A program made the translations under genes and the position numbers. From contig KZ538327.1 in assembly GCA_000934665.2 (NCBI GenBank), forward strand, positions 1 to 64,000: a stretch of DNA of 64,000 nt. The letters run 5' to 3'. Under the pieces are notes generated by a model that worked only from the letters and a program-made list of their open reading frames with translations, had not been told where the DNA came from and made no database searches. Shown in pieces: positions 8,344-59,787 of the stretch. Each line of letters starts with the position of its first letter. Positions within the stretch are counted from its first letter, which is position 1. The stretch comes from Catajapyx aquilonaris. Lineage: Eukaryota.

Positions 8344-8666
8344 ATGCAGTAACAGGTGTGGGCCGAGAGAGCAGAAAGCTGTGATGCGAAAAGGCCGGGG
8401 AAAACATGGACGTGCTTTGTGAGAATATGAAGCCGTCGGCCGTGTTGACTAGTGTGGCGTCTGGACGCGCCAAAGACGACCGGAGGCTGCACGGCAAAAA
8501 AACTTTAGCTTTGGACCTCAACAAGCTTTTGCTGTGATGTGCTTCGCGCTTTTGGTGCTAGGAAGCCTACTCTTCCACTGTTATGTTTCGGAGGCCGCGG
8601 TTAGGAATATTTTTGTAAAGTGCGCGTTGATTCGGTGCTACAAGTTCCCGCTGTGATACGAAGAAA
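8344..8666 (+). other. 5' UTR portion of the first coding exon, containing several uORFs
   Basis: Textbook 3' splice site just upstream: branch CTAAC (8321-8325), pyrimidine tract GCTTCGTTTTCTTTT, CAG ending at 8343. In-frame stops (8535-8537 and after) exclude an N-terminal extension of the main frame. Confidence 0.65.
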
Positions 8667-9245
8667 ATGGCGGAAGGCAACCAGCAGCAGCAGCAACAGC
8701 AGCAGGGAGCCTCTGGAGGCTACCGAGGCTACGAGTCTTCGTCCTCGTCCTCCCCACGGCTGTCCCTGTCCTCCGACCCTCGACTGTCCCAGCTGCTGGA
8801 CCACTGGTCGGAGCGGTCCTCCTCGTCCCACGGAAGCCCTCGGCCTTACGCGACTCTGGGCGGCAGTCCGCGGCGCCTCTCCAGAGCTTCTTTCTCCAGG
8901 CTCTCTTCCGCTTCTCACGCTTCCTCGCTGCCCTCGGTGCTTGCCGACATGCTCCAACCAGAAGCCTTCCTCTACCAGCCCCATCTCCCGCCGCACCACC
9001 TTCAACCGCATTCCCCTCACCACCACCATCACTCACCGCAATACCATCACCACCACCATCCCCCCCACCTCCACCGGCATCAGGAACCGCAGCCGACTGC
9101 TGTGGACCCTCACTGGGGACCTTCCAGAAGCGCCGATGGAGAAGCCACAGCACTGGATTGGCAACAGAGATGCCTGGAGCTGGAAGTCTCTCTCCAGCGG
9201 TACCGGGATCAGGCCGGACGGGTCAGGGAGCTCCTCAGGGATAAG
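8667..9245 (+). CDS. PLEKHH1/2: First coding exon (partial CDS, 193 codons) of a PLEKHH1/PLEKHH2-family (MAX-1/CG43867-like) PH-MyTH4-FERM protein; only the N-terminal extension and start of the coiled coil are in the window
   Basis: ATG in strong context (GAAAATGG). GC-rich, coding-like composition unlike the flanks. The last 30 aa (9156-9245, DWQQRCLELEVSLQRYRDQAGRVRELLRDK) match the recalled vertebrate PLEKHH1/2 N-terminal motif DWxxRCxxLExQLxxFRxQASKIRELLAxK. Ends at donor AAG|GTCAGT (phase 0); the ORF stop at 9252-9254 is intronic. Assignment from memory, not BLAST. Confidence 0.85.
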
Positions 9246-10730
9246 GTCAGTTGATAATGCATGACCTGAACTGCTGCATGCTGCCGCCGCCGGCTCCTTG
9301 CAGGATGGGGGGAGCATTCATAAAGCTGCGAGTGATGGCTGACCTTTTAGTCAAATTAACGTGAGCGTCGTCGTTAAAAGGAGAAGGGAGATGAGGGGAG
9401 CTGCGGCCGACGCCAATTACGTCTTGCAGGGGAGGATAATGAGGACGTTATAACGCCATAGGAAATCGCCGACCTTCCAACTGCCGTCATCTCCTGTCTC
9501 CAAGGTGACAATGGAAACGGGAATTAAATTTTGCTACCAACCTTATTAACCCGCCTGACAAGTGCCATCTATTTTAGCATCTAGGTCAACCTGCGCAGCG
9601 AGCGGGCTACGACCTTGCTCTATAGGCTTCTGTGCTAGAAGTGTTCTTTCGCTTGATTCGTCCCGAAGCCTTGCGCAGATCTTGTCCAGGCACACCCAAG
9701 CCGAAATGATTATAAACTCTCTCCTTTTAGGAGCCCTCGTAATTACGGGAGCCGCTGAGATGAAAAGTAGCCATTTTTACCTCTCAAGACCGTATTAAAT
9801 TTACTGGTATATGAGTCGGGCATAAATCATGGTTAATAAGGCGAGGATGAGTAACTTAATTACCGAATTACTGGCAGGTTGATGAAGAGCTAGTCTCGGG
9901 GCGGTTTTTCTTCCTGGACCAGGCCGAGACGTAGGTGGTGGCCTGTAGGCTAATAAATGAGTTTCCGGGAAATGGCGTGGGCCTGCCGTGATGATGGGAC
10001 CTTTCAGCGTGACCTCTCTGGACTAGTGTCAAATGAGCCACGTGACACGGGGCCTTGCAATGCTGGTAATTGCCTGTCATGCCCAGTTGGAGATGTGGCT
10101 GTGGCTGTCCAGATTGAGAGATTACAGCCGGGAGATGACGTGGGAGCCACTGCCTCTTTATTTACTCGGGTATTTCGGGTCAGGTGTGCGATTGCATCTT
10201 TCATTAGGTTTGAAAGGGAAAGGCCAAATCACACGTTTGGTGTACCCTGGCTTGCTAACGTGTGAGTTACATGTTTTTCACTCGACTAGCCTGTTATTCA
10301 GCGGCGATACGGTTCTAGATTCAAATGGCGTTTGCGACTCTATGTCAAATGCTATTTCCATGTCTATGTGCATGCTATTCATATTCGAATTTTTTGTTGT
10401 TGGGGTAAACATGCTGCATGCTTTTAGGCCGCGCTGGTGTTTCTCGAAAAGAGTAGGTTATGGACTGCACAAATGCTATATTTAAGCCGGCATTTTACAT
10501 CATATATGTACGTACATAGTAGGCCATGACTAAAATATGGTCTTTTGGTGTTCATAGTCGTGGTCGTGTAGTGAAGTGTGGCGGTCTCATGGAACACTGG
10601 AAATCTGTCATGCGCATGCCGTGTGGATCAATAGAGGTGCATGTGTAGACGGGTCGAGCTTTGAATTCACGTTGAGGGATTGCAAGCTGTGGGAAAATCT
10701 ATATGCCTCCCACACATTTGATTTTTTTCC

Positions 10731-10742
10731 CTCCCTCTCTCC

Positions 10743-10790
<48 letters not shown>
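10731..10790. repeat. (CT)n microsatellite, perfect (CT)20 at 10751-10790
   Basis: Seen directly. Confidence 0.95.
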
Positions 10791-10795
<5 letters not shown>

Positions 10796-12300
10796 CTCCC
10801 CCTCCGCTTAGTTAATGCACGTTGCAGCTATAGCAACAGGAATCATCCATCGAGTACGGCAGCTCCCGAGTAAATGTCACCACTATTTTTAACGGAGAAA
10901 GTACCAGATACAAATCTCTATTTTAAGGAGACTGTTTTACGTCTCACGTTTATGTGGCAAAGAAGGAGGAGGAAAAAACCATTTATAAACATGGAGATTT
11001 ATATCCCAATAAATGAAAGTGGTTTCTGGCAACGTACCACTCGAGGGTGCGTGGTGCAAGGGAGCCTGCTGAGAGATCCTGTGCGAATTTTCAAACTGGT
11101 AGGAAAGAGTAGTGGGCCATGAAGGGAACAGTGTATTGGACCCCAGCGTAATTGCATGAGGCCCAGCAGCTAATAGCCTCGCAATCACTCCCACCTCATT
11201 GTGACTGAACACGAGGCAAGTAGTCGTAGCTATTTAACAGAGCGTATGAGCTTTCAAGATGGGCCAATAAATCTGTCTGGGTGGCATCCATTTGCCTCCA
11301 CGCCAGACCAGATTTCCAGCGCAGTTTTGGACCCGGCTGCATCGCCTCGTAATGGTTTCATTGCCGATAGGGAAGACTGCATTTAAAACTCTTTCTCCCC
11401 CCCTCTGGTTTGCCTGTGTGGTACCGGCAATGGGAAATTCTAACTCAACTGAAAGGGACCAGGATGCGCCATTCCATTTCATTTTTTCTTCATGGGTGGC
11501 CTGTCGCGTTCGGTTTTATGTGCCCGAGATGCCCACGTTCCGGTTTCATCATAGGTTGGTGGTAGGAGCGACTTGATTGTCAAAATGTGTCCTGCTGCTA
11601 GAGACAATGAGTTATTTCCAGCCAAGTCAATAATGGAGAAACCCAGCGGGCGTGAGAGATNGATCCCCCCCCCCCCCCCATGTGCGTGGGGGGTCTGGAG
11701 TGGGGCTGATCATGTGGAAGAGTTCCTTGATAATTTCCACGAGTTTGGTCCATGTAGCATGTACCATGTATTTCAGAATTTGAAGATGAGTTTTTGCGGA
11801 AAGTTTGACGTGGAATCATACGTACTGTTGAATGCCCTATAATAGTGTATGTATGTGTAAGTTATGTCATGAAATGTGTTTTTTACGTATTGATGCTGGA
11901 ACACGTGGTTTTCCAATCATGTTGGCCATACTTGGGTAGCCTCAATAGATTTGAAAACCTAGTGTCGAGGCGGCAACACCGCGACATGTGTGTTGACAGC
12001 TTGTCAGTTGACGTGGCTTAATGGGTGTAGTAGTGGAGGTTGGATCTTTCTGGAATGCTGCCAGAACGCCGTTAGTTGCATACATTTACGGGCCGCAATA
12101 TGTACAGTACATGTTACTCGCTTTTTCAAATGCCGAGAAAGCCAGAAATTCAATTTTCTTGTCTGGTTTGGCGTATTGACTCAAATGCCCTTCTGATCTC
12201 ACACTGTTTGGTTTTGTTATCAATTGCGAAGGGATGCAGGGCAAATGAGATGTAATTTTATTTTTGTCATAATCGTGTACGCTAATGTCAACGGGGTATA

Positions 12301-18032: not shown

Positions 18033-18062
<30 letters not shown>
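18033..18062. repeat. (CT)15 microsatellite
   Basis: Seen directly. Confidence 0.95.
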
Positions 18063-33000: not shown

Positions 33001-36000
33001 TTGCATTCCGCTGCGATACAAACACATCGAAAAATGTACTAACGAACATGCATTTGGCGTATGCAGATCAGGTTAATGGCGATTTCCAAGGGTATTGACC
33101 AGGGAATAAACGGAGCAGTTGACGCGCACAAAACGAGTGGGGATGAACCGTGTGAGTTAATGTCATTCCAATTGGCAACCGGCTGTGTTGTACAGGTGTC
33201 CCCCCCTCCCCCCTCCCCCCTCTCCCCCCCCTTTTTTTTGAAAACTCATGGTTTTCCCTCCCCCTCTTCCTGCAAGTGGGAGAGGGGCCATTTGCACTAG
33301 ATGCAAATGGCAGCGGGCAAACATTTGATCGGGCGTGGATGCGAGGCGGCGCCGTTGGGCCCTGACGCAGATAGCTGCCTAACGGCCCACTAAATCCCAT
33401 TTGGATGCAAGAGCATTTCATGCGGGGACAGGACATGCCGCCTGGGATCTTCCCACCTCCCCCCTCCCTCGCTCCCATCCCTCTAGCCTCAAAACTCCCC
33501 CTTCCCCTACCCCCATTTTCAAAATTATATGTTGCAGCAAAGTTTCGGGGCGAAAGACACGCTTAATCGCAAAGTGATTCGTTGAAGGCCGCCTTCCAAT
33601 CCGGACAAATTGCTTATGAAAATGGCACCGGAAGTAGCGATTTGAAGGGAGGCTCGTGACAAAGTCTGCCTTCCCTGAGGCTGTATAGGCAGGAGCACTG
33701 GCCTATTATTCTCTAATATCTCCATAAGCCAGTGCTATGATGAGGGATATTATCCCGGGATTTATGCGCGCAAAGTTCAAAGTTTGGGTCGCGAGAGGAT
33801 CCAACCACGTTGGATTTTAATTGCACAGTAATCGTTTTATGTAGGCCAGACTTTTTGCATGTAATTAAACCGGTCGAATATATATGGAATTAATACATGT
33901 ATTTTCAGCGGGTGGCTGATCAAGTTTTGATGGGTTCTCTGCTGCTTTGACGTGGATCTTCCGGCGGTTATTTCGCGTCACATGCAGAGGGCCACCAGAA
34001 ATTCAGCGGATAGATTAAGATCCTCCTACCACGGTTTTAAAATGTGCATTTATATTAAGAATATATGCCGTCAGGGGTGTGTGCAGAAAATGGATGAAAA
34101 ACTAGGTATTCGCCCTACAAATCTTGGTCCAGGGCAGGTTGGGAGAGAAATGGTGTCCGTAGAGATGAAAAGGGCAGTAAAAATGACGGAGCGGGGGAAA
34201 AAGAGTCCAGTTGTAGAGCCGTAGGTCCGTTGGCGGGGAGTTATGCTTGACTTGACCCACCGGTCCCTCTGCCAATGTTGGGTTGGGTGAGTGCTGCGGC
34301 CTCACTGCTCTTTTTTTTCCCCCTCCCCTACTAGCCGCCGCCATTTTCTTGCAATAAATCCCCAGCCACTTGAACATCGAATTTCAATTTTCGGGAACGT
34401 CCAACAATATCAAGGTCTGTCACAAAAGAAGACCAACGTATCCATTCTTAGGGCCCAATTTTCCGGAGCCAGCAAGAAACGGAAAAGAGAGGAGGGGGGA
34501 GGCATTAAAGTTCCGGCCAGAATCCAATAAAAGGCACGAGCCACCCTTCCAAAGAAACACGTGGTGTGGAGCAGGGTGGGGTCGGGTGGGTGCTGGAAGA
34601 CATCCACTTCAAAGCCAGCTCCTCGGGTAAAAAAAAAAGAAGAAAAAAAAATGGAGGAGGAGGGCTTCTGAAATCCTTCAATATGCGAAAGTATGCGGCA
34701 GGTTCTGCCCCTGCCATTTAGGCTACGTGATGAACAAAAGAGGCGCTTGGGTTAGCTAAGGGCCAGGATGACGTTCTTGGGCATAGGCATGTGAGCTGGG
34801 AATTCGATATTGAGGATAGTGTACCAGCAATTGAGGCATGTCGGGCATCTCGGATTTTGAGTGAGCCGTGCCCTGGAACCCCCTCCGACTTGTCCGCGAC
34901 ACTCGGAAGCCGCAGATGGGGGCTGAAAGAAGCTCGCTTAGCAATTCAATTAATGGGAAGTGCGGAACGGGGTCTGTCCGGATTTACCGCGAGGATTCCC
35001 CCATTCCTCCATCCACCTTCTGCTGGAGGCCGTTTCCTTTAACCGGTGCGACATGGCCACCATCAAAGAGAGGATTTTATGCCAGCAACCCGCACCCAAT
35101 ATATCGCGGCCCTAACGGAACGATTATGCTCCACATTGGAGCAGGAGGGGAGGCCATTGGCCAAATGTGTTCAAAGGGATTAGAGCATCCCTTGTAGTTT
35201 ACTGCCCGGCTGCCAAAGTTGCGGGGGTGATGAAGCTTTGTCCGAATTGAGTCCCACGTGACGCATGAGACTAGTGGCTCCTTTATCGCTTGATGGGGCT
35301 GGTGTCTTCTTTACTGCTGCTGTCCAACCACCACCAGCTTTTGTGGTTTTCCTAGTTATGGCTGTGGGCTTGTCAGAAGCACGTCGCACGTGACGCTGGG
35401 TTCCCACAGACGTCTCTCTTTTTTTTCTGGAGGGGTTTTTCATCTGGTCTAGGGGCAGTGCCCTCGTAAAAATCTGCGACTCCGTACTGTACGTCGGGAT
35501 AGATCCATACAAGACGACACTAGGGAGAGAAAGTTGGCGATGACGGTTTTGTTTGACTCGGGGGAGTTTGATCCCGCGCTTAATTTCCTGAACATTGGCG
35601 GCAATCCTTGAGGAGAGTTGGCACAGTTAGGAGCTTGTGCAGCGATCCAAGAGGCGGGAGTCGGCAGACGTGAAAGGCGATAAGTCACGACCTCTCCCGG
35701 AGCTTAGCTCATCTGTCGCCTGTCTTGTCTAGGCGGCCATCTGAATGGAAGTCCTGATCCTCCCGCATTAAGTTTGCTCCAGCTGCGACAAACTCTCCTA
35801 CGGGTTTTATACGGCTGGGTCCAAGTATGAGGCCCAGGCTAATGGAGAAAATTACGTGCGCTTATTACGGTTTCGCGTGTAATTCTGGAATTGGTAGGCA
35901 TTGATTTGGAAGAGGAAGAAAGACTAGTGGCAGAGTCGCTTTTCTTCTCTGGGAGGCAGCTAATCTCAGTATTCCTTGTAATGGCAGACTATACGTCTCC

Positions 36001-37579
36001 TAGGGAACGGGCGCCCATTCTTTCTTCTCCCCAAACTGGCGGGTCTTTTCTTTCTTTCTTTCTTTTTTCCTCCTTCCTTCCCGGAATTGAAGGCTGAGAA
36101 GTTGGTTAGTTGGAATCACCCATTTCCAGTCAGGAAGTCAGGCTAAAAACAATTACAGAGTATCAAAAGTGCGGTTGTACGTTATTGCTTCGAGTTACCT
36201 GCTAGTCCCCGCATTGTTCAATCCAAAGGAAGGGTCTGTAACATAGCCCACACGTGTATTTTTTTTAGGTGGGTCTCTCCTCCGAGACTTCACTGCAAGT
36301 TAATCGGGTGCCTGCCCTGCTTCATTTATTTTCCTGGCGGGGCCAGGAAAGAGTGCATGTCCGGCCCGGCTGTGATAAATTGAAGTACAACGCCTTCGGA
36401 ATTTTTCTGGTGTAAAATTCATTTAACATGGCGTCGGGCTTTATTCCTGCCCGCCGCAGACTTTCGGCCGGGATACTATTCAGCGTTTGGAAATTAATTA
36501 TAGCGTTTTAAGTGGCGGAAGTGGGTGTCGTTACCGACTACATTTCTGTGAGCTCGGCTGCAGCAGGACGAGAGAGAATTACCTGAGACGAGTTTGGGAA
36601 ATGGAAGCACTCTTAATCCGCCTCAGATCCTGCCGACTTGATGTAATCCTCAGGACGGGGAATTTGGTCTATAGATATTTCCGGGTGTCCCGAGGATTAT
36701 CTTTCAAAGCATTTCCCATCGGTAAATGCGAACCACCGGCAGGGGGGTTTTCTTCGGACCGGGCGAGGAGCCTGTGTGTGTAATTGATTGAAACTCGGCC
36801 ACCCAGGACTGGAACGGCCACAATGGGAGCCTTCCAGAATGAACTCGCTTGATGGAACTCGCTAGAGAGCCAGGCGCCTCTTTATGGAACTAAAAGCTGT
36901 GGAAATTGGCAGCCAGATTGCTCCTTGAAATGCCGCGAAAGAGCGGAAACCTTCATCTCCAGTTGCAGACAAGCTGCGACGAAAGCCGGCCGGAGCTCGT
37001 CACAAAATGAAATCCGCTAGTAATTTCGTCTCTTGAACATTTTGAACTGGGGCTGCTGGTGTGGAGAACCCGGGCGCCCGTATAGTTAGGAGTTGTGCAT
37101 TTTGTTCCCACATAGTGCGGGAGAACTGTTTTAAAAAATGGATGGGGAGGAAAAAAAGTGCATTGTTCAAGAGCGAGAGAATTTTGGGAGAATTTCCACT
37201 TTCGGGCTCGAACAATGTTTTCGTCGGCTTGCTCGTCTCCCTAGAGGTCTGCGGGGGACGAGAGGTTAGTCGTGCTTTTCTGAAATGCACTGAATTTGCC
37301 TTTCCATTCAGTCCTCATTGGCAGGAAATATACCACGCTTCCGACTCGATTACCATACCATTTTCGGATATTTTCAGTATGCAAGTTGAGAAACTTTGTT
37401 GGTGGCTTTTCACCGCCTCTCGGAGCTATACGGTCGCGACCTGTGCGATGGAAAATTATATATTAAGATTTTAATCAACTTTCGCGATGCTACAGTCAGT
37501 TGACTTTGAAGCCAGACTTCATTGGGTTTTTGCTTCGGTAGTTTGTTTTAGCCGTGCTAATTACCAGTGCCGCTCAATT

Positions 37580-37639
37580 TTAATAAGCCTTTTGTCTCTT
37601 TTCAGGTAAGCAGCGTCATCAAATCAGCTGTTGGTGAGT
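37580..37639 (+). promoter_or_regulatory. Candidate recursive splice site (ratchet point) with a cryptic 28-nt RS-exon
   Basis: CCTTTTGTCTCTTTTCAG|GTAAGC (AG 37604-37605, GT 37606-37607), followed by TTG|GTGAGT at 37634. Confidence 0.6.
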
Positions 37640-39299
37640 TCACCCCGCTGATTTTGGAATTCGACGTAAATGCATGTATTCAATTCATATATTCTTAATT
37701 AATTTTCATATTATGACCTGAAATGTAGAACGATCATAGTCAAATTGCATTTTGACATGTGCGGATTTGAAACTTGAAGATTGCCTTATGTGCGTGGGAT
37801 CCCTCCTATTTTCAATCTCGGTTCTGAGAGATTATAAGTGCCTCTCTCAACATATGAGATAAAGCCCTGCATCACCAGTACGGCGGTACATATCACTCGG
37901 TTACATTTGAGAGTCATAATTGCATAATCCGATTGGTTACCTCCTCCAAAATGGTTAACCGTTATTTAAATTGATAACACGCTCCAGTCTTGCCTCAGCC
38001 TATAAGGTAGACACCCCTGTGGAGTGGCGGCTCAAATGGGAAATAGAGTCGATAGTCCCTCTGGGAAGCGTCGACGTGAGCGGAAGCGTGACAAGTGGGA
38101 TGAAGCAATTGATAGGAACTGTCCTGAGGCGGCATCGAGCCCCCTGTTAGTCAGTGAGATATTAACCAATAGTGAAATGCACAATCCAGTAGGTTAAGCC
38201 CTTTCCCTCCATTTTTTTCCCTACATTTCATTTGCGATTTAAAGCAGCCCCAGTAGCTTTAGTTCCGAATCTTCCATCCCAAATTTTTCAACCATATTCT
38301 TGTCAACCCGTGACAGGTGTCATGAAAGCGCTGGCACACTGAAATAAAGCTGCAAAAGTGGTCGTCTGGACATAACCGCGGGTGTAAACCGGTACAGTTT
38401 ACCCACCTCGTTAAGCGCATCATTGGTGACGATGCTCTTATCGGTTATGCACCATACGTTGCGAAATGATGAAGGCTGCGGTCTGCAGATTTTCACCGAT
38501 GCACCGTTTGTATTTCGCATCACCCGACGTTTATTTAAGCTGTTAGTGCAGTAATGAGCCCCTAGCCGTAGGCCTATTTCGGTATTTAATGCTGCAGCTG
38601 CAGTTAAGTCGTTACAGTCAAGGGTTGGTTAACGTTTTACTGTTAAATTTTATCTCATCCCAAGTGTCCAGCTCGGTTTGTAATAACAGCATATATAACA
38701 CGAGCATAGCTGCTGGGATTAAAAAATTCACTCGATCGTTTTAGGTACAAACTTTTTTAATGAGTTTGGTAGGTGTCTTTTTTTCACGTCCATGGGCACA
38801 GGCAACATGATGCCAAGCCAACCTGGTTTTGTGAAATTGACTTGGCTTGCAGTTTCGGGAGCACAATTTTGCCATATCGTAGCCTACCAATTTTATGTGC
38901 AGAGGGACCCGAGTATTGTGTTTTTTTGTAGCCTTTTTTTGTCCTTTTAGAGGGGGGTTAAGATAGGTGGCCGTGAGAGAATCCACAAGCTTTTCCAATA
39001 TCCTCGCAATCTCCGCTCGCCTCATCACAGGAACAGTTTAGCTGCCGGATGTTTTCATTTTGATTCTCCCCTTCTCATTTCTTTCCAAGTCTCGTGAGAC
39101 TCACTCCCGTGTGGGTATTTAGACGCAGGCTCCAAATTTGTCGTACATTTTTCGCCACCTTGCGAGAGAGTATCGTCGGATTTGTCGTGTCTTGGCAGAT
39201 GCTCTGTGAGAGAAATGAATATGTGTCTTGGTAGGACGATAGTGACCCGGTTGCACAGTGTGTAACAATCTAAAAGATCGTACAGGAGGGAGGACTACA

Positions 39300-39660
39300 T
39301 ATGAAGCGTATAACACAGGTCTAAAATATTTGACATCAAAGTAGTTGGCAAGAACATATCAGTGCTGGCACAGTTTGGAGTTGAGGAGTTAGATGGGTGA
39401 AATGGTATATGCAGGCTATCCGCCATCTGCATTGAAAGCTGGGAGCATAAAGTGCTGACGGGAAGCTTTGAAACATTCGCAATCAGTCTTGATAAGTGTG
39501 TATGATGAAGACCGTTGGTGTTGCGCAATTTTGTGCGTCTAACTTTTTGCTTTCAATGGAGTTGTTTTGGCACCTGAGGTCTTATTTTCTGCATCTCGAG
39601 TGTTCCAAGTGAAGTTTGAGGTGGTTCAATATCTGGCAACGAAACTTGATCTACGTGTAG
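39300..39660 (-). pseudogene. Possible heavily decayed non-LTR retrotransposon (LINE ORF2, downstream of RT) remnant
   Basis: Minus-strand translations give SNFTWNT (cf. LTWxxHI) and, further downstream, KVRRTKLRNTNGLHHTHLSRLIANVSKLP, reminiscent of LINE ORF2 tails. Broken by stops and frameshifts. Judged by eye only. Confidence 0.3.
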
Positions 39661-42600
39661 GCCTTGAACAGTGAGCGACTCGTATTTCGGACCTCTACAT
39701 TTTCTACTGGTTTTGGATCAAGGAGTCATTTGAGCCCTGCAGATGACCTTTTGCTCGTGTTGCACCCTGTGTGACGTACTGTACTGTACCTGCCTTTCCG
39801 CGCGAAGAAGCAATCGATAATTTTGTATTGAAATTATTGATTAGTATGTTTTAAAAGTATACGTAAATCATGCCAGTGTTAGTGACTGTATATTTTTCAA
39901 ATGTTTTGAAATGACGCTCACTATACCTGACAACATGGTTACATGGCTGAAAAGTATCAATTTATGAAAAAACAAGTGCAGCCGATATGAAGCATTTCCC
40001 CCGACACTGTTACTTTAAGAATCTGTTAAATTGTGATAGGGCCCTAAAAGAAAGTGATACATGTGGGGTTGGTTGCGAGGAAAAGTCCCTGGCGCATTAT
40101 TGCTTTTTAGGTAATGGTGCTTGTTTGTAGTTTCACCATGTAGACTTTGGGCTGCGGGAGCTTTATTCCCCAACCTCCCCAAGTCTCTCTATACGGCCCC
40201 AATTAACCCGTTTTACTCCTTGTATCCGTGCGGAAAGGGTTTATTACCAAAGGTTATGTTAGTTTGAGTGCCTTTGACCGGGGGGCTTTACTGCTCCCAG
40301 CCTTGTGGAAAACAAAAGATGATGGGGGCAGCCGGTGCCATAAGGCCCCTGGGATCCACGTCTTTGGAAGAGACTTTGCATCGGAAGTGGAAGCTTGTTT
40401 ACTTTGGCCCAAGATTCTTCCGGGACTTTGCATAACATTCTGCTGAGAAGGGGGATGGAATATTTTTCTTACATATCGAGTTACGCTGCCAGTCAATCCG
40501 ACCCTCGTTTCCTGGAACATGCCAAGTGCGCCAACGATGCATCCACACCCAGTCATCCATTGCACGATCTCTCTTTTTTTTCCCCCCCCACCACCGAAAG
40601 TCATAATTCACTCGTCGACTCTTAAACCTCATTGCCAACTCAGTTGTGGAGAGGTGATTGAGTAGTCATGCCTGCGGTTCATTTTACATGACCAAAATGC
40701 GATTACCGAACCAAACTGACGCATTATGAGGGTCATTGGTGCTTGGGCATCACCAGGCTACAAACACCATCGAGTAATCACACATTATGTTTTATTACAG
40801 TATTGGGACCGGGAAATTGCCCATTTACGTCAGGGTGCGAGAGGTTGACATTGGAAGCTTCGGAATGATGCATGGGAGGAGAGATGCGGGATAAGACAAG
40901 TAAAAGTGAGATTAATATCGGGTGTAATTTGGGAGATGTGCGGAAAGATTGATGGCCATGGCTGAGGGGGCAAGGTGCGGAGGAGAAAAAAAATGTTTTC
41001 CCAAGTGCACCGTTTGGATAAGCATTTTTGCAGCATCGAGACATTCGGTGTCGACGACCTCCAGTTTACTCCCGAGTTTAGAGCATCTTCCAGAGACACA
41101 GCGCATGCCAAAATAATGTTGGGAGGTCGTGGGCCAAGTGTGAATCGTGAGTCCAGTCCGGGAACGGAAAAAAAGAAAAAAAAATGCCGATAAAGTGGCG
41201 AAATTCACTTATCGTCCGAGGTCGGCAGTGTCAAGTTCAGCGCCGGAAGATACCGCTTTTATCTTTTCGGTGGAGCTCTCCCCCTCCCACCCCCCCTCCT
41301 CCCCATAGCGACTTTGGGACGTCTCTGGCAAATATCGCCACATGAAATTGTGTAGAAGGCGTCGGTGATAAAAGGCAGTCACCACCCTTGTAATTTGGGG
41401 AGATTAGGCGGCGCAGTGCGAGTCTATCGGACTTTTAGTAGCCTGTGGTGAAATTTACACAGGCCGTTAGCCTCGATCCAGGCGGGCAATTAAGGTGGGA
41501 AAGCCGCACTGAGGAGGACGCCATCTCCATATTTCACTGCGGGACGTGATGCTCATAAAACAGTCGTAAGACATGATGGAGGAATTGCCCGTTTGTTCTT
41601 GTTGCCCCCTCCGGTTATAAGAACTAGCAGTGAAATCCTCCCTGCAACCAGCCTATCGATCCATCATCGAACCAGTTGACTCCTAACTAGTGGGCTGCTA
41701 ATTAAATAACAAGAGAAGGTCTGCTCCGGAGGAGGGTTTGCGGCTTTGCATCCCGGGCACAAGGATGGACTCGTGCAGAGCTTTACGACCTACTATATTG
41801 CACTGCTGCAACCACCAAGATTACGTATCTGCATAGAGGTTACGTCCCTGGTGCATTGTTATGGCAGGAGAATGGAGGGGGCAAAAATGGCCTCCGACGC
41901 TTGCAGCCAAGGGTGTAAGAAGTGGAAAGTAAACATCGTCACTTCCAGGATGTGTGTGTGTGTGCGTGTGTACCGGGGATCGAGACCTAAGCTGGAGACG
42001 GCTCATTTGAAAAGTTGCCAAGCAATATTCCCTGGAAACATTGGAGGAAACGCCCACCCAGCTGGCAGCCAAGCCTGCCGAGATGAATCTGGCTAGTACA
42101 CCCTCTCCAAACTCTAGTTTTTTCTTCTTCTTCTTCTTCCCTCTCGTTCTGGCGTCTCCCTTTTCTCCTCGGTATACCCCCATACTCTCTGTCTTCCGGG
42201 GCGCTGCTGGGAATAAGAGGAAAGAAGGAGAGAAGGCTTGTTGAGGGATGCCTGAGGGCCACACCTAGAGAGGCTGCCAACAACTTCCCTCTCGTGGGCA
42301 GATGAAGTGCTTTCTCCTTCCTACACTTCTTCCATTCGACCCGTACCTCCCCGGACAAAGAAAACAGCAGCTCGCGTCCCGGAAAATGAACCTTCCTCGG
42401 CCGAAAGTGCTCCCCGATTTCATGGAACAAAAAGTTTGGCCAGTAACCCGTCTATCTGGATAGAGCTGGCCGCCGTGTGTAGTCACGTGAAAACGTGGAA
42501 TCCAGCTCCAACTTGGGCTATTGAGTCCGTCCGTAGGTCAGGCGGTGTTACAAAAGTGGTGCTGGACCAGCGCACCTGTCGGCCAGCCGCGTTTCTTGCA

Positions 42601-45600
42601 AACAAAAGCGACTGCTATGACGTGAGTGGTGGACGCTCTTTTGTTGCCGGATGTGATACCGCAGGCGTTTGTGTTTGTTGGCGCTCCAACCCCTACAAGG
42701 CATTTGTGGGCTGTCGATACGTAAACCGTTTGTTATCAGTGTCGTATAATGCACACACGCAGAATAATGGTCATAAACCGATGTTACGGCTTTGCGGACA
42801 TAACAGGAGCAGTTCATACGTCCTGCTTTGGCACGTTTTCATGCGAAAAGCGGTGGGTTACTCGGGCTGAAATGTGTCGCGTCCGAGAGGGAGGGGACCA
42901 GGCGCCAACTACTGAGGGGGGTGAATTAAATGCCACTTTTACGGCGTATCGGGGGGATCGCCGGCACAGGTCACGTTCTGCCATCGAGTTGCAGTTGACA
43001 CCATCTGAAGGTTTGACGTGTCGGGCTCCAAGTGCGCTGCTCGGGATCCAAATAGAGATTTAAACCCCCAGGCGGTGTCTTCCCTGGGGCTTGTGTCAAG
43101 TCGTCTCCCACCATGGGAAAGGGAAACGGAGAGCGTGGATTGGGTGCAGCACAGATATTTATAGCCGTTTCCGACAGCCAGGGATGTTGTCAGGGAAGGG
43201 GTCATGAATGTCGGTGGCTCGGTGCTCGAACCGCGCCGAATTGGAGATTTTCATTAATGATGCATCAGGAGGGGAAACATTTTTACTTACTGGCTGGTTG
43301 ATGCCTTGCCGGCTTGTGCCTGTATGGCGTTAGCGATGCCCTCTAAACATGCACATGGTGCATGTGATGCCGTTCAATATTGATCCGGCCAAACAAGTGC
43401 TTTTACAAATAAAGCTGATACTAGTGCGGTGTATGTACTTGCCACTGAATAGAAATTATACCACAGGTGCATACATCACGTTTTCCCACACCAGCCTGCT
43501 GGCCGCTACTGTATATACTGATGAAAGTTTACAATGTACACTCTGGGGAACCGTCATACCTCCGAGGTAGCTACATTTAGTGCAACTATACTGCTGGACG
43601 CCAACGTTGCACATTTTTTTCGGCCGGCTGTCCTGATGGTATTACTTGAAGGATATATGAGGTGTACCCGAAGTATGTCAAATTTCCGCGCATTAATTTT
43701 GGGATCCAAAGTTTGTGGACACACGCTGAAACATAATGCACCGAGATTCGGATGATATAACGCCGCGCGTTTTCGCTTTTAGACTGCATTTTGCCCGGTA
43801 TCTCAAAGTACACAGAGCAAGTCAAACATGGAAGAATGGGTTCCACATTTAGCGGCGGCGGTCCCCAGGATTAATTTCGGAGCACGTCCGTGCATCCCAA
43901 CTCACAGATATGTCACGTAGTCAGCGAAACCTTCCCCAGCACAAGGCGTGTGTAGACAGGAGTCAACACCAGCGCTTTCTTGTCATTAATTAGGATTCAA
44001 TTAGCGTGGGGGAAATGCACACATTCCCTCAAAAAAAAGTATACCCGGGGTAGAGAAAAAAGGCCCAACATGAATGGTCCGGCACGCCTGACAGCAAGGG
44101 ACATTTCTGCCATCAGGTGGGAGAGCAGTAAGTAAAGTCAAACATTTGTGCGGTAGCTTTGTCAGCGGTGGCAAACAAATTTTGAGACCAGGCCATCCCA
44201 CATGCCCACATCCTGTCAACGATAAGCCCCAGAGAAATCCCAGTCCTGATGTAGTTGCGTAGGGCTGCGTAAATTGGCCGGAGCGCGTGTAGTGCATGCG
44301 TTGCCTGGGTCCGGAAACAAACGGTGCCAAACCCGGGATTTAATGCGGCTCCAGAGGGTGCCAAGATCCTCGACAAGGTGAGCAGCCTGTTTTTAAAAAC
44401 GTCGCTCATATTTTTTCCCCGTCTTTCCTGTCCGTTTTACTCCTTCCGCGGATTGGATGTGGAAAAATATGTCATCCCCTTCTCGTTACTTTGCATCCTG
44501 GAGATAACCCGATTTTTTTTTCTCCCCCATTCCGCTCCTGCTGTTCATGCGATGCAACAGGCTGGGGGGAAAGTTGTTTTCCCAAAAAGTGTAAGATTAT
44601 GGATGTACCAAGGGTGGTGTAATTAACTGTCTGACAAGGCAGAGGAAGAAGCTTCATAAAAGGCACGAGTTGAACTTTGTTGTACTCTTTGGAACGATTC
44701 CACAGTAAACAGCAGCCAGGATGTTGGCAACAGCTCGCTGTATACTAATTTACTTGTTCCCTGGTCTATATTTGTTTCACGTACTTACTTGTTAGTAAAA
44801 GCCTGGGAAAGAGTTTTTACATCAGATGTTCCAACCCACTGAAAACTCGAGTGGAAAAACAAAATATTTGCTACAGTAGGCGCGTGAAATGGACAATGGC
44901 GAATAATTTTATATACCGAGTGAATATTATTTTGATGCGTGTTGAATTTTCGTTGCGTGCTGATGCATCGGATTTAGCTTTTGCCTGAAAAGCATCAGAT
45001 TAGGTGGATTCACGTGGGAGGTCCATTAGAGGGCAACAGATGAAATCCATCGGTGGAAGACTCGGAGAAAATCGCTAATTGGAAAACCTATCTGGATGCA
45101 GGTTGGAATCCGCAGGCCAGGCTAATTAGCGTGCACCGGTGGGCAATATATTTTCATATAGATTGTTGCGGAATTATGTGCGCTGGTGCTGGTGGGTCGC
45201 TGTTGGCGAGCAGGCCCGAAAAACGCGTGGGAAATGGGATAGCATGCGCCAAAGTAGATTGGTGGATTGAATGTATAGTTCGTTTGCGGTCCTGTGATGT
45301 ACTGTACGCCAGCAGATCATTCGTGCAATGGCAGTATTGTAGTTGGAACATTACATAACGTATGCACATCGGTAATTACGTGTTTCGAAGAGAGCCCAGT
45401 CCCTGAGCGGCATAATATATATCTCCGGGGGTGTATAGGGATAGAGGGTGGGGGCTGCTCATCTAGGGAGACCGCCGAAACTCGCCAGAGTCCACCCATG
45501 AGGAAGCTACGTTTGAGACGTGCAAATGTAATATGCGAGTTCTCATAAAGTCGGTGCAATTCGCACGGCTGCTCACGTATGTATAATGAGTCGGGGGAGC

Positions 45601-48600
45601 CTTAATGCACGCACCTGCGAGCGACTTCCCTCTGGTGTGGTTTGAACCAGGCTCCAGAACAAAAGAACAACAATGACGGCTTCCTTTGAAGTGGCCCCTC
45701 AAAGCACAACGGGGAAGGCGGGTGCGCTGCTGAAGGAAACCTTCTTGACGTTATGAATATTTTATTCCAGGGATGTGTATACTGTAGGCAGGATTTACAT
45801 TCGAGGAGATTATCCTCAAGTCTAGTTCCGAGCATACTTTTGTTAGGGACGCTCAGGAGCCATAGATATCTAGGCGGCAAGGCCGTGGTCTCGACTGGTA
45901 GGAGCTGAAAATAATTAGAAGGATGCTCGATTGTTTTCAGAGACGGCCTGTAATTTACTGACGTCTACAAGTGCAGGTGGTTTGGGAGGTTGTTTGCAAG
46001 TGAAGGGCAAGTTGGCGAGCGCTAAAGTGAACTTCTACAGTTCCCTGGGGCGCTGTCTTGTGGAAGCCAGCTTTCGAGGTGGCGGTTCGGCCACATTCAC
46101 CAATGTATATAGGCGCTAGTTGTATGCGGCACACTGATGTGTTAATGACGTGCGAGCATCCTCTATGATTATTAATGAGTCCACCTCAAAAATTCTGATG
46201 ATCCATATTATAATAATTTTGGCACGAATGATTGGCAGTGCAATTATCGCCCCTTATTGGTATTACCCCCGCTGCCATTTTACCCGATTTTAATTATTCC
46301 TGGAGTTGTAATCCTGGAATAAAAAACGGAGCCAACCCTGTCATATGACCTATTGTACTTTTTGATCCAACGCTGAGGACCCCCTGGGATTGAATCATGT
46401 GGGTGAACCTAGGCGTAATCCCTTCTGAATGAAGTACAGTACAGAAATGGTGGATTGCAATTTCTGGTTACTGTACGCACCATGCCAGAAACAATAAAAA
46501 AACATAGGGAAGGGTGCTGGGCAACGAGGGGCAGAGAAGCTGCCGATTATGCAGTGTCGATGACGTTGATGGATTATTGGAGGGATTTGGATGGGTTGCG
46601 GCCGACATGCGAACAAGACTGGCTCGTGTTGTGTGAGTTATGCACAGTAGAGGCGGCAGTCGGGAGAGTGGCGATTCCCGGTGAAATGTTGCGTGGGATT
46701 TTCAGCTGGGGGACCGGATTAATCGGCTTGAAATCAAAATGGATGGTATTGGAAATAAAATGCTAATAGGATTAAAACGCGGTCGACCCGGATGATATTC
46801 ACTAACTTACCTACTGTTCCTTTGTTACGAGTTCATTATTCGGGTATTACTGTGCTGTACAGATTCATACGGAGCAATGCAGTTGTATGGTGGCTATGAA
46901 CCCGAATTCCATTTTTTTGAGGCTTGGGAGCGCAGGCTAGCGGAATAAATGAAAGCAATGTACATTTCTTTTGAGGGCAAAGGAGGTATAGAGGATCAAA
47001 GCCGTCCTTCAGCTCATCCTGCCTTATGGTTTTCTACTTGTGGAATAGGCACGGCACCCGTCATTTCTGTGGGCAAAAAGCGAACGCCAAACTCGTGCTC
47101 TCCTTTTGGACCCTGGCTTGTCTTGATACCCTTATTCTGCATGCATGAATGCATTTTAAAAGTCGCGAGTTGAAAACTCGATTAACTTCCCGGCACTTCC
47201 CAAAGCTTGGACTGGAAATTCCAATAAACCCCCATTTTTCCCCTCCAACAGTTCCGGTTTACTTTTCCCATTGTGGCTCCCAACCCACCTCACTTTCCAC
47301 CCTCTCTCTTCAACTTTGGACCAAAATTTCCCCGGAAAAATTAGTATGCCTGCGTTCATTAGTCGGAAGTGTCTGAAAGCTTAGAAGCAGACGTTTGTAA
47401 TGAGAAGGGAATGTGCTGCCACTCTGTTGTCGACCGCCAGACTGCATTTTCCTTGCTTTTTTCCCCCATTTTTAAATGGTGTGTTTTCCTGCATAATAAG
47501 CCTGGCTAGCTTTTCAGACGAATAAACCCGCTTTGTACAGTCATTGTTTCCGGGAGCGTTTGAAATACCACGAATAAGATAGTGATCATAGCATGTGTAT
47601 CCTTCCGTGGCTTGCCAATAGTATGTGGTGAGGCGCAATATACTCCGAAATTGACCAATTGGTGAGGTGTAAGCTATCAAGAAACGGTTGTTTTTTTTCT
47701 GATTCAAGGCCACGTATTCAGTTATTTCGTAAATCCTTTCGTGGTGGGTGTTGATAGGTCACGCCACCATTATGCGTTGTGGGAGTCATGACCTAGACTT
47801 TCAGGAATTGTGAACATTGTGCAAGGAGCAGCGTGCTATAGTTGAGGCCAACGAGTTTGATATTGGTATTGACCCATGCACCATGGGAGGGTGATTGGGA
47901 TTTTGGTGACACGCTCGAGCAGTTAGTTGCAACTGGGAAGCAGAGGGGGGGATCAGGGGAAAACGAATTTCATTGACGTGCTGCTGAAACGTCCCAGCGT
48001 TCCATGCGTGATGTATGCAAAAATTAACTCTGCCTAATTCAATCGACGGGAGTTAATTTTTGTCGCCTCTTTACTGTACATGCAAATTGCATTATTTTTC
48101 CCGCTGCAGTCGCCTAATTCTAATTCCGGCTCTGCGACTGTCAATGAAATCAAATGACTGGACAGGTTTTGGGGCAAAGGCGCCACTTGTAGGGCAGACA
48201 TGATGGTCCATTCTGAATGGATGGATTGTCGATGACTCCCAGGACCTGTATGTGAAGAAAGAAAGCTGGGACGATATTGATTTTTATCGGACAAATCCCG
48301 TTTGCAAAGTTGCCGACGACTGGGGTGCATTTGAATAGTATATTAAAACGTCACATCCAGAGACCTAACGGTTCATTAAAGTTGCAGGGGCTGTAAAAAC
48401 GAGCAGCGCCCCCCCTGTGGAAGGGGGGCGACATCCAAATGGGGGCTTTCTCCCGAGTGGGGGCGGAGATGATTATACGGAACTATTGTTATTCCAACAG
48501 ACTTTTCCCCTTTCGGCCTTTTGGATGCAACGCTCTCCTTCTTCCTACCCTACACTCTTCGTTCAGTTTCCACTTAGGAAGTGGAAAAAAATAATCATTT

Positions 48601-48763: not shown

Positions 48764-51700
48764 CCCCCCCCCCCCCACTTAACTTACGTATTATTAGTGG
48801 AAACTGAACGTGCATTGATAAGTCCCAAAGGGGTTTTTTTTCCCCCTTGGGTTTTTGGACATCTTGTCGGACGATATCCAAAGCCTCCAAAGCGTAGAGT
48901 GGGTCAAGTCAGCACGCTGTTTGGGTAATAGGCAGTTAAATAAGACTTATGACAACCTAGTAATATTTTAAATAGAAATGGATAGCCCATTTAATATCTT
49001 CGTTTTTGGGATAAAATCCGCCATTTCGGGAAAGTTGATAATACTTGCTGCTGTGAGCAGTATATAGCGAGTGTTTTTAAATGTATGATGATGAAAGCTA
49101 CTTGTAAATATGGATACACCGTAGAAATTGTACTGAATTTGTGCAATAACAAAAATATTGTACTCACAGGGACATGCAAAGACCTGAAATCTAAGTCACA
49201 TTGCACTGAAATGATTTAGAGATGTGACAATTTGAAGATTGCGTTTGCCCTTATTGGAACCATTTAAAAATATCTCTTAAGGGACTAATTGATACATTAG
49301 TAAACTATCTGGTTAGAAGAAAATGCGAGTCATTGACTATACATTTCACAATGCGCAGCTATATTTCTATCAGTGTGTGACTCGGATCATATCGCAAATC
49401 AGGTTTTCCAGTGAAATTAGTTGTGACATTTCTACGAATGCCCCCTACTAGATCCGTGGCATAATTTGGTTGTCAATGTTCGGGGCCCAGAAAGGAGCCT
49501 TTGATCATATTTTCATGTTATGTCGCAGGTCACGCAGTCCTCGTTGTCCGCTAAATTGATTGCTGATTTTTTTGCTGACAGCTCGAGAGTACCTCCACTT
49601 ACTAAAAACCACGGATGAAACGTGGTTTCCCTTTACGATTTCAATTTTGATCATATGCAGCGGATTCAAAGGGAAAGCAACAGTAACCTGAGGCTCACCC
49701 ATTCATTAATAATAGCCTACCAGTCATAATATCAATTTATGGCCGAAAATTGCTGAAAAACTGGGAAAGGGCTTGCTGCTGAAATATGGCAATATATAAC
49801 ACAATGTAATGAAGGGAGGGTTGTTAAAATTGCATGAGATGCAGTTGCCATTTACACATGTGGGTTATAGAGCCTCTATTTATCAGGGAGTCAACATTCA
49901 TCCATTCCAAGTTGAGTTCGAATGTACTGATAGCCGAGTTGTGCTGATGTCATTCGAATGTCACTATTGGCTCACGGGAATGAGATCTGACAACTGGTAA
50001 GTTCTACCCCAGCAAGAGATTTCAACATTTACGCACATTTTCTGAAACCTGACGCCGAGAAGAAAGAAGTGGGACAGCTCCATGGTATCATTATGTTTCT
50101 TAACTTTAATTTCTTGGGGAGAAAACGTAGGAGGAAAGCCGTCGTTTCTGCTGACGGCGGTGGAATTACTAATTACAAGTTGTCACAGGAAAGAGAGTGA
50201 AGCAGCAAGCCTCTACGCGTAGTACGCGGCTGGACGTGGAGAAAATGAGAAACTGGTAGAGCTAAGCCGTGCTCAAAAGTAGATTATGTTGTCTGTCTCC
50301 CTACGTGACTCCCAGCCAAGAAGCTCCAAAAACTTCCTGAATTAAATTACCTATTCTCTCTATGTGGGGGGCCCTAAATTTATAAGGGAAGGGAGCCTTC
50401 CTCAGCGAGATGGATGACCGTCGCATTCGTCTGGATGATTGCGATCGGAAGTGAAGGGATTTCGCTCGGGGATCTTATTCCGACTGTCCATCAAGCCTTC
50501 TGCACTCATTTCGTTACCAATTTTTCTCTTTTTCTCGTTCCCCGTTCATTTCTCTTTCAGGACTGAAAACAGGCGCAATAATAATGCAGAAGAGACGCGC
50601 ACTAAGGCCAAGTCAAGGGCGGCCAAAATGTTTCATTTGAGTTGGAGGTAGATGGGGGATCTGAAGCCACCTCTTGCCAACTTTATGCCCGGAGTGATAA
50701 TCCATCGCGGGGCGAGCTGGGAGAACAAGCCCAGAAGACCCCCTCCGATATCATTTGGAACAGGGAGACTGTGAAGAATGACGGCCGTTATCTTTTCAAA
50801 GGAGAAACTTTTTTTCTCTCTCTCTCTCTCTCTCCTCCCCCCTTTTTCCTCTTCGCAAAGAATAGTAGAGGGAGTTACGGACCCTCGTACAAATCTCCCG
50901 AAATGGGCAGATAATTTTTTGGGGAGTCTTTTTGCACGGGGAAAAGCGTGGGAGGAAGGAGAGTGTTTAGATGTATGCCGCTATTGTTTCTAACACTTGG
51001 CTGGAACGAGCCTTTTCTCATTGCTGACGGTGTCACTTTAGGAGTATTCTTCTTTCTTGGCAGATGCTATGTCAGATTTTTTGGGGGACGCCTGGGAAGA
51101 AACCCAGAGACGTATTTAACGTGGGAGTTGCAAACTGCATGTTGCCTGCCATTCTTAGTAGCACAAGTTGTGTGTGTGTTTTTTTTACTACAAAAGTTTG
51201 GATAAATTGAGCTCGAACAGCGTTTTTCATTTTCCAGCCCGCGGAGATTCAAAGCACCGATTTAGTATCACGCTCTCAGGTCTTTTCACAAACTTTTCGA
51301 AGGAGATTAGGATTTTTGGTTCCTTTTTTCCTCTCTCGCCCCAGAAGTTACGCCTCCGCTGGGAATATTTCAGTAACCGTGGCCATGTCGAAAAGACCGT
51401 TTTTGACTTTGTACCGGAGGTGCAGAACTTTGGGAAGAACATTGCAGTCGTGAAAATTCGGCAATTATTTTTTAAATAGGGCGCTTGATTTACTTTTTCC
51501 AGAGATGTCATAATATCTTGTCTGAATAGCGCAGGTTCATTGATTTGGGTAGAAAGTCCAATAATTGATGAAAATATACATTAGGTATAGTAGGTTATGT
51601 CGCCTTCTTAACTAAGAATCCATTTCATGGTCGTACAAACTCGGAAAGGAGTCCTGTTCTCATGTAAGAGTGCCATATCGTTGCACTGATAAGGTCTGTA

Positions 51701-57310: not shown

Positions 57311-57375
<65 letters not shown>
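57311..57375. repeat. (TAA)n microsatellite, about 21 units
   Basis: Seen directly. Confidence 0.95.
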
Positions 57376-59704: not shown

Positions 59705-59787
59705 AAATTGTCTCATTTTTCTTACCATCCCTTGTTCTCTCGTTCCAGGTATGCGGGCAATTTTTCACCACCATCTTGTATGTGAGT
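59705..59787 (+). promoter_or_regulatory. Candidate recursive splice site (ratchet point) with a cryptic 29-33-nt RS-exon
   Basis: About 40-nt AG-free pyrimidine-rich tract ending CGTTCCAG|GTATGC (AG 59747-59748), followed by overlapping donors GTATGT (59778) and GTGAGT (59782). Confidence 0.55.

Follow-up and report, generated by a model that had tools for sequence, protein, structure and literature searches.

A candidate fly-type recursive splice site with a 28-nt cryptic exon in the giant intron of a PLEKHH1/CG43867 ortholog

Is a giant intron removed in a single step or in several? This question is raised by a locus of Catajapyx aquilonaris, on contig KZ538327.1 of the GenBank assembly GCA_000934665.2. 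We analysed positions 1 to 64,000 of its forward strand, and this whole stretch of 64,000 nucleotides (nt) is called the window. It carries an N-terminal coding exon of an ortholog of PLEKHH1/CG43867, followed by a very long intron in which an acceptor is fused to a donor (AG|GT) at the junction 37605|37606. The sequence of this junction leads us to conclude that it is probably a recursive splice site of the fly type, having a 28-nt cryptic recursive-splicing exon (RS-exon) and a second site 22 kb further on. Recursive splicing as a mechanism is not new and is well known in fruit flies. For this locus we established which sequence elements make up the site and how rare they are statistically, on which strand it lies, and what the host gene is, with a conserved exon boundary upstream.

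A preliminary description of this DNA had pointed to the motif, and all of its elements were present in the sequence, with TTTTCAG|GTAAGC spanning 37599-37611 of the + strand. The core of the proposed ratchet point, AG|GTAAGC, occupies 37604-37611. Its acceptor CAG ends at 37605 (bases -6 to -1, TTTCAG), and the donor GTAAGC that would be regenerated covers 37606-37611. The acceptor is preceded by the polypyrimidine tract CCTTTTGTCTCTTTTC at 37588-37603, in which 15 of the 16 bases are pyrimidines, with TT at -5/-6. A second donor, TTG|GTGAGT, lies at 37634-37639 with its GT at 37634, and the 28-nt interval between the two donors (37606-37633) is the putative cryptic RS-exon. Thus the tract, the fused junction and the second donor 28 nt on were all confirmed. 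Read in the incoming frame, the 28-nt interval has no stop (VSSVIKSAV plus 1 nt).

Two branch-like elements had also been described, and both are found where they were placed, the distal CTAAT at 37557-37561 and the proximal TTAAT at 37580-37584. The proximal one may serve as the branch point; its A37583 lies 22 nt 5' of the last acceptor base, 37605. CTAAT was rejected in this role, because an AAG at 37585-37587 intervenes before the acceptor. A reading of 37606 as donor for an alternative first exon of the coding sequence was considered and rejected as well: the frame ending at 37605 is closed by a stop seven codons upstream, and no ATG follows this stop. The strict pattern YYYYNCAGGTRAGT gave no match in the window, because the donor at 37606 ends in C.

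The strand and the host of this site were derived from the coding exon upstream. This first coding exon in the window lies at 8667-9245 on the + strand (579 nt, 193 codons, phase 0 end), inside an open reading frame (ORF) at 8631-9254 with its Met at 8667. It ends in GATAAG and is followed by the native 5' splice site GTCAGT at 9246-9251; the boundary between the K codon and the GT is conserved in relatives. Single-sequence word-index searches with the exon returned no match in the 'longer' and 'near' length ranges, and Pfam likewise gave none. A full phmmer search against 1.84 billion representatives produced 41 matches at an expectation value (E) of 0.001 or less, and all 41 align to the last 30-75 residues of the exon (approximately residues 120-193). 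The conserved part consists of the last ∼45 residues, an N-terminal coiled-coil motif of PLEKHH1/CG43867 proteins, together with a short SDPRLSQL motif. The coiled-coil motif, W..RC.ELE..L.R....A...R.LLR[DE]K, ends at the conserved phase-0 exon boundary.

Fourteen relatives, all genomic ORFs, were retrieved. In 13 of them LLR[DE]K has V directly after it, and the residues from there to the stop are unrelated, which is how read-through into a GT intron looks. The exception, P0001, was the best phmmer match; it has the coiled-coil motif twice in an ORF of 167 amino acids (aa), with neither copy followed by the GT-type valine. Possible explanations are an exon duplication or an assembled transcript, in another species. 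A profile made from the 14 sequences led to 10 long proteins of 1390-1748 aa. Their source names are 'uncharacterized protein CG43867' (decapods, mantis shrimp, scorpion, butterfly) and 'pleckstrin homology domain-containing family H member 1' (barnacle, pipefish). They have the precomputed Pfam matches PF00784, PF00373 and PF00169, which we take to be MyTH4, FERM and PH; in the present gene, the exons for these domains fall outside the window. When these full-length relatives were aligned to the window by tblastn, all 10 matched 9096-9251 only (E from 4e-11 to 5e-7, in this small database); the remaining matches in the window had E of 0.03 or more. In all eight related metagenome loci, AAG|GTA(A/G)G stands directly 3' of the K codon. 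As judged from these alignments, the host gene is a PLEKHH1/CG43867 (MAX-1 family) ortholog, 9245|9246 is a conserved exon boundary and the + strand is the sense strand. The placing of the motif on the sense strand of the gene in the preliminary description was therefore borne out by the exon boundary shared with relatives.

How long is the intron that starts at 9246? A motif search of the window for the next exon of the family (LAELEQR...) found nothing credible. The string 'IELEQR' at 51209 was tried as exon 2 and rejected, as it is accompanied neither by fitting splice sites nor by a continuation. As no later family exon is found in the window, the intron is at least 54,755 nt long (to the window end), in agreement with its earlier description as giant. 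The proposed first recursive segment, 9246-37605, measures 28,360 nt, which is the distance of 28.4 kb from the donor at 9246 that had been stated. The exon of 579 nt makes the intron phase 0, and therefore a 28-nt insert would shift the reading frame if retained, also as proposed. The + strand shows a skew of G over C and of T over A in nearly all 2-kb bins, including those 5' of the coding exon, and this fits a single long transcription unit on the + strand.

Scoring of all AGGT sites on both strands had been suggested for this site, and we carried it out over the window with a rough log-odds matrix. The junction 37605|37606 scored 10.7, the top value among 217 AGGT sites on the + strand and 156-157 on the - strand. 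The next sense sites scored 9.0 (59748), 6.6 (1942) and 6.1 (29476), and the best antisense score was 6.0, also on the antisense strand of the intron. Thus the 37605 site came first, and no antisense site was comparable to it. A strict filter was also made from the published hallmarks of such sites (TT at -5/-6, YAG, GTRAG and at least 12 pyrimidines out of 16). It was passed by 1 of the 181 sense AGGT sites of the intron and by none of the 126 antisense ones.

As a null we used 300 order-1 and 300 order-3 Markov simulations of the intron, matched in composition. A score of 10.7 or more was reached in 3% of the runs of either order. A strict site alone appeared in 3.7–4% of the simulated runs, and a strict site with GTRAGT 15-100 nt downstream in 2/300 (order 1) and 1/300 (order 3). 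GTRAGT itself occurs only 23 times per strand of the 54.7-kb intron, and therefore a donor 15-100 nt from a given point is expected with a frequency of ∼3.6%. Real DNA served as a further control: in the eight related loci (45.6 kb, both strands) the top AGGT score was 6.1.

The second best AGGT score of the window, 9.0, belongs to a second candidate ratchet point at 59728-59787 of the + strand, which comprises a pyrimidine tract, TTCCAG|GTATGC, an RS-exon and a donor. Its sequence is CCTTGTTCTCTCGTTCCAG|GTATGC, with the junction at 59748|59749 and TT at -5/-6. The second putative RS-exon, again the interval between the donors, is 33 nt long (59749-59781) and in frame (VCGQFFTTILY), and its donor TAT|GTGAGT lies at 59782-59787. 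The site is 22,143 nt 3' of the first one and on the same strand; no site of comparable build was found on the antisense strand. Of 400 introns simulated at order 3, 0.5% had two or more sites with a score of 9.0 or higher, and 0.25% had one or more sites of this score with a donor close by. Together the two sites would divide the intron into segments of 28.4 kb, 22.1 kb and more than 4.2 kb.

Whether an RS-exon is skipped should show in the relative strength of the competing donors. With the rough matrix, the regenerated donor AAG|GTAAGC scored 7.1 bits, against 4.7 for the native AAG|GTCAGT and 4.1 for TTG|GTGAGT of the RS-exon; the regenerated donor also matches the consensus in 7 of 9 positions versus 6 of 9 for the RS-exon donor. 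At the second site the regenerated donor scored 4.4 bits and the RS-exon donor 3.1. As the regenerated donors score higher on this rough scale at both sites, both cryptic exons are predicted to be skipped.

On this basis the following order of events can be proposed. The interval 37606-37633 would be recognised as a tiny exon, defined by the TTAAT branch at 37580, the tract at 37588-37603, the CAG and the donor TTG|GTGAGT at 37634. Exon 1, with its GATAAG end, would then be joined to 37606, and the first 28.4 kb would leave as a lariat. This ligation would create the donor AAG|GTAAGC, which is predicted to exceed the native donor and the RS-exon donor in strength. The regenerated donor would be used next, and the 28-nt exon would go with the next intron segment, leaving no trace in the mRNA. 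The like-built site at 59748|59749 would serve the following step. Were the 28-nt exon retained instead, it would shift the reading frame. Use of the acceptor, the order of the steps and the skipping of the exon are what we infer from the arrangement of the elements. The stepwise removal put forward in the preliminary description is partly supported: each of the checks made at the level of sequence favours it, and they also brought the second like-built site 22.1 kb downstream; as a mechanism it keeps the conditional form given here.

Several points weigh against a recursive splice site at 37605|37606. The rough matrix is a weakness, having been built from approximate splice-site frequencies; the filters were chosen with knowledge of the site; and Markov simulations are a weak null for real introns. 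As a bare acceptor, 37605 ranks 26th among the 3317 sense AG sites. Acceptor-like tracts scoring 7.0 or more number 24 on the sense strand versus 21 on the antisense strand, and of the antisense ones, 2 of 21 are accompanied by a GTRAGT at no more than 200 nt, which is about the chance expectation; therefore pseudo-exon-like pairs are not rare as such. An exact 22-mer of the ratchet-point core found no match in the metagenome contigs. Exons as small as this one are hard to define, and its 28 nt are fewer than the ∼50 nt of fly RS-exons. The site has C instead of T at donor position +6, and its pyrimidine tract is shorter than in many fly sites. The intronic position at 37.6 kb is deduced from a lack of exons, exon 2 lying outside the window. 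The precedent in the fly gene described below leans on a presumed identity of FBgn0264449 with CG43867 and on a fly intron that may or may not be the orthologous one. The eight related loci, in which 177–5,991 nt of intron are covered, contain no ratchet-like site and are uninformative on a site 28 kb into the intron.

How far, then, could the elements at 37605|37606 be there for other reasons? In a long T-/G-rich intron the acceptor tract, GTAAGC and GTGAGT could have come together by accident, as a pseudo-site that is never used. The abundance of strong acceptor-like tracts on both strands, the modest rank of the 37605 acceptor, the antisense pairs at chance rate and the post hoc filters, applied after 64 kb had been scanned for anything notable, all speak for such an accident. 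Since acceptor tracts are common on both strands, what is odd about the site is that its acceptor is joined directly to a good donor and that another consensus donor follows ∼30 nt on. An accident of this kind is opposed by the simulations (scores of at least 10.7 in 3% of the runs, a strict site with a nearby donor in 0.3–0.7%), and nothing comparable occurs on the antisense strand of the intron or in the 45.6 kb of the related loci. It becomes less likely still with the second like-built site on the same strand, because 1/400 simulations had one site of this build and 0/400 had two. We regard a chance pseudo-site as unlikely.

The same elements would also be expected of a regulated cassette or poison exon, whose occasional inclusion would cause a frameshift with nonsense-mediated decay or a truncated isoform, and whose purpose would be regulation and not stepwise removal. 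The exon-like build is complete (acceptor, 28 nt, consensus donor), the interval is out of frame like poison exons, and some fly RS-exons are expressed. Alternative micro-exons are indeed known from the orthologous intron of decapods. In the isoforms P0042 and P0044 (2 of the 10 full-length relatives) a 5-residue insert (HIRGK, RLKGK) lies between LLREK and LAELEQR, and therefore represents an annotated 15-nt micro-exon in that intron. This insert, however, is 15 nt and in frame, and no counterpart of it was found in 9246-64000 of the window. A splice from exon 1 to 37606 would, moreover, always create AAG|GTAAGC, which at 7.1 versus 4.1 bits (rough matrix) is stronger than the RS-exon donor; re-splicing should therefore dominate, as shown for fly Bx and kuz. 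A GTAAG start is a hallmark of the recursive class and not of ordinary cassettes. Taken together, regulated inclusion appears improbable to us. The site could also belong, as an exon or splice site, to another + strand transcript that is unannotated and unrelated to splicing of the host gene, such as a nested non-coding RNA; this would be in keeping with the six nested intronic genes of the fly ortholog. However, among the 255 ORFs of at least 75 aa in the window none matches Pfam below E 0.001, no Rfam family was detected, and an independent transcript would have no use for an AG|GT fusion that regenerates a donor. We consider this explanation very improbable indeed. A recursive splice site thus remains the reading that we favour for 37605|37606.

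Is there a precedent for recursive splicing in this gene family? The identifier FBgn0264449 is one that we take to denote CG43867, and the coordinates fit. The shift between release 5 and release 6 of the fly genome is presumably ∼106 kb, and with this shift the positions of the CG43867 probes given below fit the coordinates of the recursive sites. In Table S1 of Pai et al. (2018), FBgn0264449 has a high-confidence site at X:770636, TTGCAG|GTGAGT, with junction reads and a sawtooth, 16.6 kb into the 50-kb intron X:737207-787254(-) (release 5). A second entry of the same gene, X:806584, has a sawtooth only and lies in the 33.5-kb intron X:788338-821889(-). CG43867 is a 119.7-kb gene at 1C5-1D2 on X, with six nested genes in its introns, and its 3' and 5' end probes map to chrX:807846-808682 and chrX:924765-926274.

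The fly gene resembles the present one in that it belongs to the same gene family, and its two recursive introns, in a gene of ∼120 kb, are both situated toward the 5' end. The two cases differ in how far the site lies from the donor, 28.4 kb here versus 16.6 kb in the fly, and there is no sequence similarity to the sites of FBgn0264449 past the generic motif. A literature search found no paper that combines 'recursive splicing' with 'CG43867'; the supplements of Pai et al. use FBgn identifiers, and the literature text that mentions FBgn0264449 does so without a gene name. We tentatively suggest, as a possibility on the weaker side, that stepwise removal of the long 5' introns of PLEKHH1/CG43867 is an old, conserved trait common to Drosophila melanogaster and this distant non-drosophilid invertebrate.

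The sequence of the region also yielded observations of its own. Three sequencing runs, all of a single sample that is possibly the source of the assembly, have DNA contigs over 33456-47699 that differ from the window in no more than one letter; the sequence around 37606 is at least reproducible within that sample. A further small run gave no cover at the 37606 site. At 42118-42139, a stretch of ∼20 nt beside a C-rich run is matched by many other contigs of all four runs. Word depth rises there to as much as 37, against a background of ∼25, and the contigs show loose ends; this is probably a short dispersed or low-complexity repeat. In the window as a whole, no transposon or protein domain was detected, and 11 tandem-repeat rows were recorded. 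The Pfam search just mentioned took in the ORFs of both strands, and two matches that fall far short of Pfam's own cut-offs (E of 0.005 and 0.008) were dismissed as noise. The Rfam scan of the window gave zero families. The 55 kb of intron is thus unusually clean, unique non-coding DNA. Microsatellites lie at 10731-10804, 18033-18062 and 57311-57375; they are (CT)n arrays and one perfect (TAA)x21.7. The coding exon at 8667-9245 is rich in low-complexity sequence, with poly-Q near its start, serine runs and His/Pro-rich 30-nt repeats (8994-9060), and all six frames are open over 8600-9260.

What would a functional site mean? To our knowledge, genome-wide maps of recursive splicing exist almost only for Drosophila melanogaster, together with a few vertebrate genes. 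If 37606 is used, it would provide a case outside Drosophila, in the ortholog of a recursively spliced fly gene, and would bear on the age and stability of such sites. If stepwise removal is an old, conserved trait of the gene, ratchet points of the fly type whose cryptic RS-exons are tiny, as with the 28 and 33 nt of the present intron, would occur widely among invertebrates, and a gene could keep such sites for very long periods in spite of the turnover of intron sequence. There is a bearing on annotation as well. Either cryptic interval, of 28 or 33 nt, can be mistaken for an exon by gene predictors, and the reading frame would break if the 28-nt one were included.

The closest known system is that of the Drosophila ratchet points with cryptic RS-exons (kuz, Bx and Ubx; Hatton 1998, Burnette 2005, Duff 2015, Joseph 2018/2021), with which the present site shares the fused AG|GT. 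The architecture described earlier for it fits these published ratchet points. In the preprint of Duff et al., 197 fly ratchet points are reported in 130 introns of 11.3-132.7 kb (mean 45 kb), with segments of 2.6-63.6 kb (median 16.4 kb). TT at -5/-6 is present in 196 of these 197 points, and their flanks are conserved. The 37605 site likewise has its TT at -5/-6 within a pyrimidine tract, and its intron of at least 54.7 kb and segment of 28,360 nt lie within the fly ranges. Pai et al. (2018) describe recursion as common in fly introns longer than 40 kb and enriched in first introns, with typical segments of 9-15 kb; conservation of the sites is twice that of control AGGT. Among the 47 validated fly sites in part 1 of 11 of their Table S1, 11 have the donor GTAAGC and 3 have GTATG, the type of our second site.

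The RS-exon can be compared in the same way. According to Joseph et al. (2021), a ratchet point is a tandem acceptor|donor followed by a short cryptic RS-exon (∼50 nt, variable) and a downstream donor. There the RS-exon is mostly out of frame, and some fly RS-exons are expressed; the ratchet-point donor is mostly stronger than the RS-exon donor, and its weakening leads to inclusion. Like these, the interval 37606-37633 is short, out of frame and closed by a donor of its own. The 37605|37606 site therefore appears to agree with the fly ratchet points in each of the sequence criteria that we applied. The fly set, however, was defined by junction reads, sawtooth patterns, lariats and conservation, while the site at 37606 is known here from its sequence. 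The host also is not Drosophila; its best protein matches are CG43867-like proteins of crustaceans, chelicerates and insects. Outside Diptera, recursive splicing has been invoked for one intron of the locust, from motif prediction and U2AF65 immunoprecipitation.

Vertebrate RS-exons and poison cassettes offer two further comparisons. As with the vertebrate RS-exons, the exon here would be defined first, and the competition between the regenerated and the RS-exon donors would set skipping or inclusion. Of the mammalian RS-exons (Sibley 2015; Blazquez 2018), most are annotated and included, and the exon junction complex represses their recursive donor; intronic recursive sites that are fully suppressed were noted in only about nine cases. 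Frame-shifting poison cassette exons share with the present interval that they are short, not a multiple of three and destroy the frame if included. They need no donor consensus at their start, whereas the 28-nt exon begins with GTAAGC, so that its ligation would regenerate a strong donor. Unlike most mammalian RS-exons, the site at 37606 looks to be of the fly type, with an exon that is cryptic and, as predicted, skipped.

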